This document shows positions 6,838-53,520 of a DNA stretch of 54,094 nt, piece by piece. The notes under the pieces are model-generated. The model did not search any database. It was not told where the DNA came from and was given only the letters and a program-made list of their open reading frames with translations. How positions within the stretch are numbered: position 1 is the first letter of the stretch; each line of letters opens with the position of its first letter. The stretch spans positions 1 to 54,094 of the forward strand of contig CABMIU010000025.1 of NCBI GenBank assembly GCA_902386385.1, in the 5' to 3' direction. The translations under genes were made by a program, and so were the position numbers. The DNA comes from an uncultured archaeon. GTDB lineage: Archaea; Iainarchaeota; Iainarchaeia; Iainarchaeales; Iainarchaeaceae.

Positions 6838-6941
6838 AACCTTTTCCTTTCTATTTAGAAGAGAAAGTAAAAGGTCCTTGTCCCTTTAGGGACGAGGTCT
6901 CATGCTCTTTAGGGCACAAGATAATCAAAAGGAAAGAGAAC
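6838..6941 (+). repeat. Structured intergenic element, copy A (pyrimidine tract, purine tract, two hairpins, second purine tract)
   Basis: CCTTTTCCTTTCT (6840-6852) pairs with GAAAGTAAAAGG (to 6874). A hairpin CCTTGTCCC-TTTA-GGGACGAGG spans 6876-6897, and a weaker hairpin with a TTTA loop spans 6898-6921. The element ends in AAAAGGAAAGAGAAC. It is related to 31247-31348. Confidence 0.6.
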
Positions 6942-9534: not shown

Positions 9535-10176
9535 TCAGTGCTCGCGCATGAGAACTTCCACTTCGTGCCTCGAATGCCTTTTACCCAGGCCAAGGATTAC
9601 TGCAATCGCCTTCATGAGAAGGGCAACCACTCCAAAGAGGAAAACCGTTTTCCCGCTGACGGTTGTGAGAAAATAGCCGGACCTCAAAAAGGAGAGGTGA
9701 ATCAGCATGAACACGAGCGCAGCATACCCTATTGGCTGCAGGGATTTCCAGTTACCGAACCCAATTCTTTCAAGGTAATGCGGAAGCGATGCAATTGCGA
9801 GGCCGCAGAGGACTGCAAGGCCAAGCACCCAGAAAACCCATGCCAGAAAGTCAGGGTTCTGGGCAGAGAACATGAAAAGGAAATCAAGCTTGTATGCACC
9901 CACCGCAGCAATGCCAAAATAAAGCAGGGCAAACAATGTGCCTGCGTATGCAACCGGCTTCCTGTAAAGGAGGTCATGGCTGAACTTTTTCGGGAATACG
10001 CGCGACAAAGGGCCGAGGACAAGGGCAACCGAAACCATTATCATCGAGGCGACAAGCAGCGAGCGCCCTGTGTTTTCCCAGAAGCCGAAGCCGTTGCCGG
10101 AAATAAGGTTGAATGTCAGGAAAAAAAGCAGCACGAGGAACGAATTCACATAAGCCCTGAACTCGCCCCAGTACAT
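9535..10176 (-). CDS. Polytopic membrane protein, function unknown
   Basis: 213 aa with about 6 hydrophobic helices. I recognised no motif with confidence. Confidence 0.5.
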   Translation of the reverse strand: MYWGEFRAYVNSFLVLLFFLTFNLISGNGFGFWENTGRSLLVASMIMVSVALVLGPLSRVFPKKFSHDLLYRKPVAYAGTLFALLYFGIAAVGAYKLDFLFMFSAQNPDFLAWVFWVLGLAVLCGLAIASLPHYLERIGFGNWKSLQPIGYAALVFMLIHLSFLRSGYFLTTVSGKTVFLFGVVALLMKAIAVILGLGKRHSRHEVEVLMREH

Positions 10177-15059: not shown

Positions 15060-15240
15060 AGCCGGCCTTGAAAGGCCATTATATTTGGAAGGCATGATGG
15101 GCAATCACAACTACACGGGGCCCAATGCTTTACAAAAGCTGCCCGCCAATCAAAATGAACGGGGGCGGGCGGCAAAAAATAAATTTATTTCTCCAGCGAG
15201 CCACGCTTTTATTCTTGGCACAGCTTTTCAGCGAAGCTGA

Positions 15241-15293
15241 CACTTTTCTTTTTGGTAAAGCTTTTTCTTTTCGTGTCAACGAAAAGAAAAAGG
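15241..15293 (-). repeat. 53-nt repeat, copy 1 (3' trailer of tRNA-Pro); contains the hairpin CTTTTTCTTTTCG-tgtcaa-CGAAAAGAAAAAG
   Basis: 47 of 53 positions are identical to 15412-15464, and only the central 6-nt linker differs. The oligo-T runs directly after the tRNA 3' end could also act as the terminator. Confidence 0.8.
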
Positions 15294-15330
15294 TTTGGGG
15301 TCGGGAGGATTTGAACCCCCGCCGCAGCGT

Positions 15331-15468
15331 CATTCGCAGCCTTTTTCTTTTTCTTGATAAGAAAAAGAAAAACGCTGGCGAAAAAGAAAAAGAACAGCCC
15401 ATAGGGCATTACACTTTTCTTTTTCCCCAGGCTTTTTCTTTTCGTGTCAACGAAAAGAAAAAGGCTGA
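15331..15468 (-). other. tRNA-Pro intron (BHB type, 138 nt)
   Basis: The BHB reads CAGCG/CGCTG, then a 4-bp TTCG/CGAA helix flanked by the 3-nt bulges GGT and TGA, then CAGCC/GGCTG. Confidence 0.8.
15412..15464 (-). repeat. 53-nt repeat, copy 2 (5' part of the tRNA-Pro intron)
   Basis: See copy 1 at 15241-15293. Confidence 0.8.
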
Positions 15469-15660
15469 CCCGAACGCTGAATCCTACCAGGCTAGACTAC
15501 GACCCCGAACAACAATATTCAAAATATTTGACTTCTATGCCCGTCATTTTAGGCAGAAACTTTTGCGGTGGGCATGACAAGGAAAATTTTGCATGAAAGG
15601 CTTAAATACCCGAAGGGGCTAATGTTTTAATTTGATTTCAGGGGAGTGGGGGAATAATTT

Positions 15661-30076: not shown

Positions 30077-30169
30077 AGCAGGTTGCAGGAGCCTTTGAGG
30101 CAAGGCGGGATAATACAAGGCGTGACGAGGCAATGCATTGAATGGAAGATTCAGGCAATTGGTGTTGTT

Positions 30170-31243
30170 ATGGGGATGAATCTGCGCTCTTCGCTGATGT
30201 ACAGGGTAATGGCTTTCGGCTATGCTAACGCGCGCGTCAAGGCAATGAAGCAGGGCCTCCTAAGCCAGAGGGAAATGGACACTCTGATGGCGGCAAAGGG
30301 CGTCGGGGAAGTGTTTGCTGCACTGGAGAAAACAAGCTACAGGCAGGACCTTGTCGCGAGTGCCCTGAGGGAAAAGAGCCTCGCGGACCAGATTGAACTT
30401 GCGGCAACAAAGAATTTCTCGGCAGTGCTTAGGAGGATAGTTAGGATAACCCCGAAGGAAGCAAAGGGAATGGTGCTCGCGCTCTTCGACAGGTATGAAA
30501 TCAACAACATCAAGATAGTGCTTCTCGCAAAGCATCTCGGCCAGAACAGGGAGCAGTACAACCAGTTCCTCATGGAGATAGGCATCCTCTCAAGGGGAAA
30601 ATTCGCGAAAATGCTCGAGGCAAAAGGCGTGAGGGAAACCGTCATTGAACTCGCGGGCACGCCTTATGGAAAGGTCCTTTCAAAGGCAATGAAGGAGTAT
30701 GAAAAGGACAGGGACACAGGCCATATGCTCTCCGCGTTGGACAATTATTATTACGCGAGGCTCTCGGGTGCCGGGGCAGGACCATTCTGGGACGAGAGGG
30801 CGATAATGAAAATGCTGAAGGCACAGGCTGATGCAAAGAACATTTCTAGCATACTCAGGTCAAAGAAAGAGGGCTTTGGCGAGGAAAGGATAATGAAGGG
30901 AGTAATGTTCACGGGAAACATGGGCCGGGAAAGGCTAAGGCAGGCCGCGGGGGCGAAGAATGTGGAGGAATCAGCAAAGCTCCTCGATAGGGGGCTAGGC
31001 CTTTCAAAGGCAATGGAGTCATTCAGGAAGACAGGCAGCCTGATTCCGGTAGAGACCGCCGCGGAAAAAGGCGTTGCAAAGAAAGGCCTCAAAATACTGA
31101 GGAACAGTGTTCTGTCAATCGGCGCAATAGTGGGCCTTGTCCTTCTCAAGGAGGAAGAGGTTTCAAACATACGGAAAATCGTGAGGGCAAAGGAATTCTC
31201 GCTTCCGATGGAACAGTTGCAGGAGATGATTGTACAAGTCTGA
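30170..31243 (+). CDS. atpC: A-type ATP synthase subunit C
   Basis: It contains ..YANARVKAMKQGLLSQREMDTLM... The start was set at the ATG at 30170; the ORF itself opens at 30083. Confidence 0.85.
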   Translation: MGMNLRSSLMYRVMAFGYANARVKAMKQGLLSQREMDTLMAAKGVGEVFAALEKTSYRQDLVASALREKSLADQIELAATKNFSAVLRRIVRITPKEAKGMVLALFDRYEINNIKIVLLAKHLGQNREQYNQFLMEIGILSRGKFAKMLEAKGVRETVIELAGTPYGKVLSKAMKEYEKDRDTGHMLSALDNYYYARLSGAGAGPFWDERAIMKMLKAQADAKNISSILRSKKEGFGEERIMKGVMFTGNMGRERLRQAAGAKNVEESAKLLDRGLGLSKAMESFRKTGSLIPVETAAEKGVAKKGLKILRNSVLSIGAIVGLVLLKEEEVSNIRKIVRAKEFSLPMEQLQEMIVQV

Positions 31244-31246
31244 TAC

Positions 31247-31348
31247 AAGCTTTTTCCTTTTCCCGGAAAGACCTTGTCCCCTTTGGTACGAGGCCTCGGC
31301 CCTCTAGGGCCGAGGAAAGTAAAAAGCTTGAGCAAAAAGGAAAAGAAC
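31247..31348 (+). repeat. Structured intergenic element, copy B
   Basis: The outer stem is AAGCTTTTTCCTTT (31247-31260) paired with AAAGTAAAAAGCTT (31316-31329). It encloses CCTTGTCCC..ACGAGG and a perfect 9-bp hairpin CCTCGGCCC-TCTA-GGGCCGAGG (31294-31315). The tract AAAAAGGAAAAGAAC follows at 31334-31348. Confidence 0.65.
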
Positions 31349-31356
31349 CGGGATGA

Positions 31357-31704
31357 ATGGTGTTTATGGAAAAAAACGATGTTGCACTCGTGAAGATTGT
31401 CGTCGTTGCAGACGGCCCCACTTGCACTGGCTTCAGACTTGCGGGCATACAGGAAATTTTTCCGAGGGAAGGCCGCGAAGCGGAGGCAAAAATAGAGGAG
31501 CTGCTGGGCACCGAAGACACAGGGATTATAATCACCAGCGAGGCAATAATGGAAAAGATGGATTGGCGCCTCAAGAAGCGCATTGAGAGGCAGGCCAAGC
31601 CGGTGGTGATAGCGGTGCCGGACAAGGGCGGGCCAGTTGCAGGGGAAGCGGACTCGCTGAAGAGCCAGATAAAGAAGGCACTGGGATTCGAGATTATGGC
31701 ATGA
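31357..31704 (+). CDS. atpF: A-type ATP synthase subunit F
   Basis: 115 aa with ..[18 protein letters not shown]... Its stop overlaps the atpA start (ATGA). Confidence 0.85.
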
Positions 31705-53245: not shown

Positions 53246-53299
53246 CTCTTTTTCTTTTTGGTTCAGCTTTTTCTTTTTCTCTCCGAGAAAAAGAAAAAG
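53246..53299 (+). repeat. Mirror-repeat pyrimidine tract plus a perfect 15-bp polypyrimidine/polypurine hairpin in the tRNA-Ser 5' leader
   Basis: The sequence reads CTCTTTTTCTTTTT (53246-53259), ggttcag, CTTTTTCTTTTTCTC (53267-53281), tcc, GAGAAAAAGAAAAAG (53285-53299). The element ends 4 nt before tRNA position 1. Confidence 0.85.
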
Positions 53300-53303
53300 G
53301 TGA

Positions 53304-53520
53304 GCGGGGATGGCAGAGCGGTCTAATGCGCACGCCTGGAATAACCCTTTTCTTTCTCTTGCGAGAGAAAGAAAAGCGTTAGCGGAAAAGAAAGAGAAGC
53401 TGGCAAGGCTTTCTTTTCTTTTTTCGCCAACGTTTTTTCTTTTCTTCGCGAAGAAAAGAAAAAAGGTTGCGGCCAGCGTGTTCCTTCACAGGAGCATGGG
53501 TTCGAATCCCATTCCCCGCG
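53304..53520 (+). tRNA. tRNA-Ser (anticodon GGA, class II) with a 133-nt intron at 37/38
   Basis: The 5' exon (53304-53341) is GCGGGGATGGCAGAGCGGTCTAATGCGCACGCCTGGAA. The 3' exon (53475-53520) is AGCGTGTTCCTTCACAGGAGCATGGGTTCGAATCCCATTCCCCGCG. The acceptor stem is GCGGGGA/TCCCCGC, a long variable arm is present, the T-arm is ATGGG-TTCGAAT-CCCAT, and the discriminator is G. Confidence 0.85.
53342..53474 (+). other. tRNA-Ser intron (BHB type, 133 nt)
   Basis: The BHB reads CACGC/GCGTG, then a central CTGG/GCGG helix (3 of 4 positions pair) flanked by the 3-nt bulges AAT and CCA, then AACC/GGTT. Confidence 0.75.

Follow-up and report, generated by a model that had tools for sequence, protein, structure and literature searches.

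Short, structured repeats such as REP/BIME sequences and Correia-type MITEs are dispersed and co-transcribed in the operon spacers of bacteria, where their stem-loops can affect mRNA stability and processing. They are simple palindromes that come with a mobilising enzyme (RAYT or transposase), or else have terminal inverted repeats and target duplications. At the RNA level, triple helices are formed by an ENE and an A-rich tract, for example in MALAT1, the 3' end of which is made by RNase P beside the tRNA-like mascRNA. BoxC, PIT and TMECO are multi-copy, intergenic intrastrand-triplex repeats of bacteria with a class II/IV three-tract design, which vary between strains and have no demonstrated regulatory role (PMC4666352; Hoyne/Maher 2000; Holder et al. 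2015). The TMECO consensus is CCCTCNCCC-N3-6-GGGNGAGGG-N3-GGGNGAGGG, and according to literature quoted in the same paper, pyrimidine-motif intrastrand triplexes can form in RNA and purine-motif triplexes cannot (PMC4666352). H-DNA is described as a homopurine-homopyrimidine mirror repeat in duplex DNA (PMC11667243). No report of such elements in archaea, in DPANN or in archaeal tRNA introns was found in the literature. By analogy with these systems, the element analysed here, which lies between atpC and atpF of an archaeal atp operon, would most likely be a structured REP/BoxC-like repeat.

The window, that is the whole stretch of 54,094 nucleotides, contains an A-type ATPase operon assigned by Pfam as atpI (27209), K, E, C (30083-31243), F, A, B and D, and genes for NAD, pyridoxal, PRPP and CTP synthesis are also present. 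The closest outside matches to AtpC and NadB showed 63-66% identity and came from uncultured archaea, several of them labelled Candidatus Diapherotrites; judged by protein similarity, the host is a DPANN archaeon without a close sequenced relative in the searched collections. An exact look-up of the window AtpB gave no recorded match. The first-pass annotation had described the operon as otherwise tightly packed, which did not agree with the spacers of 73 nt at atpI-K and 92 nt at both K-E and B-D. It had also placed the end of the element 9 nt before atpF. Because GGTG lies just upstream of the ATG at 31366 (MEKND...) and AtpF of the relatives (108 aa) begins with MEN or MES, the gene probably starts at 31366 rather than at 31357, which makes this distance 17 nt. 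The window AtpA has 596 aa and no intein; AtpA of a relative (L004, 11470-14754; also L005) has 1094 aa and includes an intein that contains a LAGLIDADG domain.

The element in the atpC-atpF spacer, hereafter copy A, spans 31246-31349 on the + strand. It starts with a pyrimidine tract P (AAGCTTTTTCCTTTTCC, 31247-31263) and a remnant hairpin TTTC-CCG-GAAA to ~31269, followed by hairpin 1 (CCTTGTCCC-loop-(G)GTACGAGG, 31272-31293), hairpin 2 (CCTCGGCCC-TCTA-GGGCCGAGG, 31294-31315) and two purine tracts, R1 (AAAGTAAAAAGCTT, 31316-31329) and R2 (AAAAAGGAAAAGAAC, 31334-31348), all on the + strand, so that both hairpins lie inside the P-R1 loop. R1 is the Watson-Crick partner of P, with a U opposite one C of P, and R2 is complementary to P in parallel orientation and mirrors R1, with 12/15 matches and 10 full in-register triples. 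RNAfold of 31240-31365 gave an outer stem AAGCUUUUUCCUUU/AAAGUAAAAAGCUU, a P:R1 helix of 14 bp with one C.U mismatch, enclosing CCUUGU.CC/GG.ACGAGG and a perfect CCUCGGCCC-UCUA-GGGCCGAGG. A repeat search returned the same arms (31246-31266/31310-31330, 21 nt, 86%; 31294-31303/31306-31315, 100%), and the spacer sequence and fold are therefore as the first-pass annotation described them. The MFE was -43.0 kcal/mol (z = -2.3), and equally good folds were obtained in 5 of 200 shuffles. By energy alone the fold of copy A is only moderately unusual, and its non-randomness comes from recurrence. The motif CCTTGTCCC-N-ACGAGG occurred twice in the window, against 0 occurrences expected.

Rfam 15 gave no gathering-threshold match in the window, permissive Rfam scans of copies A and B had best E-values of 0.3-0.8, and an internal promoter in copy A was rejected, no TATA-like box being found there. 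A reading of copy A as a C/D-box or H/ACA sRNA was rejected, no box motifs being seen by eye, as was its reading as a bulge-helix-bulge (BHB) intron, with 0 strict BHB matches at its borders. The BHB scan recovered the true motifs of three tRNA-Pro genes as controls and returned many false matches in low-complexity tracts, so that its use was restricted to these controls and to the negative outcome for copy A.

A related copy had been proposed before nadB. BLAST of the atpC-atpF spacer against the window found no second copy, because the parts are rearranged there; a motif search recovered it as copy B at 6838-6941 (+), between a NMN-adenylyltransferase-like (nadM-like) gene and nadB. Copy B consists of P 6840-6852, R1 6862-6874, hairpin 1 6876-6897, hairpin 2 6898-6921 and R2 6927-6941 (+). 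R1 thus precedes both hairpins, which occupy the R1-R2 linker, whereas it follows them in copy A. The fold of copy B had -38.6 kcal/mol (z = -3.6). The two copies have hairpin 1 (CCTTGTCCC...ACGAGG) in common, each has a further hairpin, and their pyrimidine and purine tracts are similar. Hairpin 1 is invariant in sequence, being also found in a related genome (L007:8833), and contains a U.G wobble on the sense strand that corresponds to a C.A mismatch on the other strand. For hairpin 2 the structure and not the sequence is kept, its shape being preserved through four compensatory pairs among three copies (A, B and L007-1); hairpin 2 of copy B also has a U.G wobble workable on sense RNA only. 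The wobble of hairpin 1 and the compensatory pairs of hairpin 2 favour a hairpin module that would fold on the sense RNA, with the reservation that the copies are related by descent. Another candidate copy, at 9870-10020, proved to be coding sequence. The nadM-nadB site itself is variable, with copy B in the window, only 25 nt in L016, and in three other relatives an extra ORF of 148-327 aa without a Pfam domain (L013 3591-4574, L014 5019-5918, L017 9546-9992).

The relation among the tracts follows one rule: R1 is the reverse complement of P, and R2 mirrors R1, which amounts to being complementary to P in parallel orientation. Eight such triads were found in the window and six in two related genomes. 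The earlier idea of one pyrimidine tract with two purine tracts was borne out to this extent, as the three-tract logic is conserved and defines the family in all 14 copies. The triad finder made 11 overlapping calls on the window, which correspond to the eight triads, and not one on 40 dinucleotide shuffles of it. When the third tract was permuted, the mirror relation had p values from 5e-5 to 3e-3 in each of 11 copies (0.003 for copy A), with a summed log10 p of -41 over these copies, which are not all independent. The three strands could be aligned in register with 10-15 full triples per copy; the third tract showed 11-17 in-register matches (12 in copy A, the weakest of all) and the P:R1 helix 12-16. 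The tract sequences vary among the copies, and both pairwise relations are kept in every one of them. Asymmetric C spacings, e.g. 2-4-6 against 6-4-2 in the partner tract, imply a true mirror rather than a periodic artefact. To our knowledge, mirror repeats are the product of no duplication or inversion process. An intrastrand fold-back triplex is the economical physical reading.

Six of the window copies are minimal triads (T1-T6), with loops of 2-8 nt, linkers of 5-9 nt (~7) and no extra hairpins. The loops of copy A are 52 nt (two hairpins) and 4 nt, and the linker of copy B is 52 nt; relative to the 1-6 nt allowed for loops in the ITxF definition, copies A and B lie far outside and the minimal triads come close. 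The other features of an intrastrand-triplex motif (PMC4666352), a Watson-Crick tract pair and a third tract of (reverse) Hoogsteen polarity, were found. All copies lie in non-coding DNA. The gene-sense strand reads P - R1 - R2, an arrangement that Hoyne/Maher and Holder et al. call class II, and the opposite strand has, in this order, a Hoogsteen pyrimidine tract, a Watson-Crick pyrimidine tract and a purine tract (class IV). In the spacers of co-directional genes, 6/7 copies are class II in the sense direction, a bias that is not significant, and R2 ends 7-18 nt upstream of the start codon in copies A, B and L007-3. The shared orientation and the position of R2 near starts hint at selection at the transcript level, which would not be expected if the repeat were selfish or worked purely as DNA. 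In most intergenic copies (A, B, L007 8797-8895, L007 8935-8989, L010 9313-9362 and L014 8583-8638) the middle tract is defective at the central C/G, where it is mismatched (C.U or C.C) or bulged by 1 nt, and the outer tracts are perfectly matched. The tracts of the six tRNA-associated triads are perfect and have no such defect.

These six triads accompany the only tRNA genes of the window, tRNA-Pro(CGG) (15296-15506, - strand) and tRNA-Ser(GGA) (53304-53520, + strand), both of which ARAGORN missed with its defaults and recovered when long introns were allowed. The intron of tRNA-Pro is 138 nt long, at 37/38, with a canonical BHB; that of tRNA-Ser is ~126-133 nt. Each intron holds two oppositely oriented triads, and a third triad adjoins one end of each gene. 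Inside the tRNA-Pro intron are T2 on the + strand (15414-15464) and T6 on the - strand (15340-15394), with T1 (15243-15293, +) directly 3' of the gene. Inside the tRNA-Ser intron are T5 on the - strand (53345-53398) and T4 on the + strand (53411-53466), with T3 (53246-53299, +) ending 5 nt upstream of the tRNA 5' end. In the tRNA sense, the class IV triads T3, T4 and T6 end 5-9 nt before an exon, and the class II triads T5, T2 and T1 begin 1-4 nt after one. The outer helix of the tRNA-Pro BHB (CAGCC/GGCUG) is built from the terminal parts of the first and the last tract. By alignment, the architecture is shown to be conserved across copies with differing tracts, and the repeat to be scattered over operon spacers and over the introns and flanks of tRNA genes.

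Two further observations concern the tRNA-Pro locus. A 54-nt direct repeat, 91% identical, is formed by 15240-15293 (3' of tRNA-Pro, with T1) and 15411-15464 (in the intron beside the 5' exon, with T2); it brackets the 3' exon and T6, which suggests a local duplication. In many triads (window 6838, L007 8795, L010 9311) CA(A/G)CC precedes the T-tract, and the triad-free, ancestral-type tRNA-Pro intron of L016 (~19107, - strand) starts with CAACC, paired with GGTT in the outer BHB helix. These starts are a possible hint that the repeats might be derived from, or move as, intron sequences.

Relatives were sampled around atp, which biases the result toward an apparent association with the atp operon. 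A syntenic contig (L016/L004, 59-63% protein identity) had 0 triads in ~42 kb; its nadM-nadB and atpC-atpF spacers are 25 nt and 28 nt, and its orthologous tRNA-Pro intron is ~31 nt long, where the window has 138 nt and L014 has 70 nt. Relative to this triad-free relative with its short spacers and short intron, the copies are shown by sequence comparison to be insertions into tolerant non-coding sites, with empty and filled sites too diverged to align except at the tRNA-Pro intron. Five triads were present in GCA_040960315.1 (three in L007, two in L014). Its atpE-atpC spacer contains a hairpin-bearing copy collinear with copy B and one minimal copy; the others lie in the atpB-atpD spacer, upstream of nadA and, in degenerate form, in the 70-nt tRNA-Pro intron. 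A profile search found one triad in a third genome (L010), between atpK and atpE, ~85% identical to T2 of the window although the AtpC proteins are only 56% identical; near-identical triad subfamilies are shared by genomes with an AtpC identity of only 56-60%. Between atpC and atpF the element was absent in 5 of 5 related genomes with a readable spacer (17-nt overlap to 92 nt). The distribution is patchy, the sites in the atp operon differ by genome (C|F in the window, E|C and B|D in L007, K|E in L010), and at least one copy in sense orientation is present in the atp operons of three genomes.

Scans of genome-contig and viral-contig collections found no more copies, the source genome and its nearest triad-bearing relative apparently being outside them, and a scan of a metagenome collection gave three chance matches without flanking similarity. 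No transposase was detected among the 36 large window ORFs scanned against Pfam. At the ends of the copies, P and R2 give no more than a pseudo-inverted repeat, and no consistent flanking duplication was seen by eye. An IS110-family transposase gene (L014 41-1051) shares its contig with two triads, and nothing was seen that connects it to the repeats. A common ~27-nt module, CCGCTCACG(C/T)ATATACTTT..ATTAC.A, follows three of the triads in GCA_040960315.1 (L007 8898-8925 and 8992-9019; L014 8639-8667) and is absent from the window copies. It holds a TATA-like ATATAC, and these three triads may thus be promoter carriers.

The triads resemble BoxC, PIT and TMECO in having three consecutive tracts on the same strand in the order Y - R - (reverse) Hoogsteen (class II, with a class IV complement), and in being multi-copy, intergenic or within operons, patchy among close relatives, at variable sites and with no gene-specific function known. 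They differ from these repeats in their archaeal host, in their A/T-rich tracts of 13-17 nt with a 7-nt linker instead of G/C-rich tracts of 9 nt, in the copies located in tRNA introns and beside tRNA exons, and in the two extra hairpins in the loop of one subfamily, to which copy A belongs. Assignment to BoxC/TMECO proper was rejected, since the consensus CCCTCNCCC...GGGNGAGGG is absent and the tracts are T/A-rich (e.g. CTTTTCTTTCTCT): the repeat is of the same kind but not a member. With REP/BIME and Correia-type MITEs the triads share that they are short, structured and dispersed in intercistronic spacers; unlike those, they have a mirror-related third tract, and no mobilising enzyme, terminal inverted repeats or duplications were found. 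R1 and R2 with their linker (on the opposite strand, Y2-linker-Y1) make up a mirror repeat whose spacer is short, which is what H-DNA requires in sequence. H-DNA needs the mirror repeat alone; here the inverted-repeat partner P on the same strand makes a single strand sufficient for a triplex. Class IV triads are like the MALAT1 ENE in combining two U-rich strands with an A-rich strand with isolated C/G positions, and in ending a few nt upstream of tRNA exons, where the endonuclease would make a 3' end. In contrast to the U-rich internal loop of the ENE that clamps a tail, the triads would be simple fold-backs, and the atp copy is oppositely oriented. Six triads lie in or beside archaeal BHB introns of tRNA genes and tract ends contribute to the outer BHB helix, whereas the borders of copy A have no BHB motif, so that it is not an excisable intron of this kind.

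Several explanations were weighed for these observations. That the tracts are a mere by-product of low-complexity purine/pyrimidine runs has in its favour that coding strands are purine-rich (the window has 255 purine tracts of 11 nt or more) and that (T5C)n tracts are nearly self-mirror; but the empty shuffles, per-copy permutation values of at most 0.003 that include asymmetric tracts, the non-coding position of every copy and the near-identical subfamilies in diverged genomes refute it, and it is extremely improbable. The first-pass annotation had read the element as a switch, in which P pairs with R1 or R2 and thereby controls whether ribosomes reach the atpF start or the RNA is cleaved close to it. 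Its proposal that R2 is a second Watson-Crick partner of P held in part. A competing pair was found in copy A by the repeat search (31252-31261/31335-31344, TTTTCCTTTT/AAAAGGAAAA, 100%), and the RNA duplex energies of P:R2 and P:R1 are close in several copies (L7-1, -10.4 vs -10.8 kcal/mol; L7-3, -20.6 vs -20.8; T6, -15.0 vs -13.4). The positions of R2 shortly upstream of starts and the common sense orientation of 6/7 inter-gene copies agree with a switch, and in L007-3 R2 continues into an AGGT Shine-Dalgarno-like motif and the MFE structure pairs P with R2. However, R2 mirrors R1 rather than copying it, which is not expected from selection for an alternative Watson-Crick helix, and the alternative Watson-Crick relation of the third tract was only marginal against permuted tracts. 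Refolding of copy A without R1 was ~10.5 kcal/mol worse and did not use P:R2, and the MFE structure does not sequester the GGTG/ATG region of atpF. The orientation bias lacks significance, and the same triads occur within tRNA introns and flanks. An element acting on atpF would also be expected in the atp operons of relatives and not as a generic repeat at unrelated sites; the atpC-atpF spacer lacks it in five genomes, two of which have it in other atp spacers, and copies lie in or beside two tRNA genes in both orientations, so that these expectations largely failed. An atp-specific translational or processing switch is unsupported by these data, and such a mechanism is improbable. Copy A is probably not an atp-specific switch, though a local effect on atpF expression might still exist.

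A selected, REP/BIME-like RNA stabiliser or processing barrier between the genes, which would shield the atpIKEC or the atpFABD segment and set subunit ratios, would account for the strong sense-strand structures of copies A and B (-43 and -38.6 kcal/mol), for the wobbles workable on sense RNA only and the compensatory pairs of the hairpins, and for the sense-oriented copies in the atp operons of three genomes. The variable position in the operon (C|F, E|C, B|D or K|E), the relatives that mostly have no copy at all and the atp-centred sampling, which inflates the association, argue against it, and it leaves the mirror-related third tract unexplained; we consider it unlikely, if slightly less so than the switch. 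A function in tRNA biogenesis is as doubtful as the switch. Class IV triads 5' of exons would here cap the 3' ends made by RNase P or the splicing endonuclease as U.A-U/C+.G-C RNA triplexes, terminal tracts would build the outer BHB helix, and the operon copies would be spill-over insertions. Consistent with this are the placement of class IV triads shortly before and of class II triads shortly after exons, the outer helix of tRNA-Pro, the perfect tracts of tRNA-associated triads as opposed to the degraded intergenic ones, and the ability of pyrimidine-motif triplexes to form in RNA (PMC4666352). On the other hand, just two tRNA genes were seen, the orthologous tRNA-Pro of a relative has a 31-nt intron and no triad, and RNAfold explained the tRNA-Pro intron equally well by one long ordinary hairpin of the two inverted triads.

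The reading that we regard as fairly probable is that the atpC-atpF spacer holds one copy of a lineage-specific, dispersed triplex-type repeat, which would act as a generic stable intercistronic structure if anything, and not as an atpF switch. Against it stand the weak relation and long loop of copy A, the shared sense orientation with R2 near starts, the defective middle tracts of intergenic copies, and the searches that found no transposase (among the ORFs scanned), terminal inverted repeats or target duplications. Under this dispersed-repeat reading, we infer that the three-way relation is kept through a capacity for intrastrand fold-back, the triplex itself being predicted. The pyrimidine-rich strand could form a T.A-T/C+.G-C triplex in single-stranded or supercoiled DNA, or in RNA where it is transcribed (tRNA introns), and the sense DNA strand a purine-motif triplex. 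Since the purine motif does not form in RNA (PMC4666352), the sense atp mRNA (class II) could not use the triad as a triplex, and the class IV copies of the tRNA introns could. On the atp mRNA only the P:R1 stem and hairpins 1 and 2 would be able to form, and the role of copy A there, if any, might be that of an exonuclease barrier or of a pause site with its U-tract. A bolder model takes the triads for triple helices maintained by selection, which would be the first family of this sort in Archaea and would have 13-17 potential triples. As RNA, class IV triads just 5' of tRNA exons would cap the 3' ends that RNase P and the splicing endonuclease generate, in analogy to MALAT1/mascRNA, and as DNA, triplex-armed cruciforms would pause polymerases in operon spacers such as atpC|atpF. 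This model is tentative and on balance rather unlikely.

Because of the triads, default annotation overlooks tRNA genes and operon spacers become longer, so that the repeats can be mistaken for gene-specific regulators, as happened in the first-pass annotation. The host lineage is barely studied, and the tRNA-intron copies sit where an RNA-level triplex is chemically possible. If the three-way relation reflects a real triple helix, these repeats would be natural, evolutionarily maintained long intrastrand triplexes with built-in covariation, and covariation of this kind would be rare in vivo evidence for a triplex structure.
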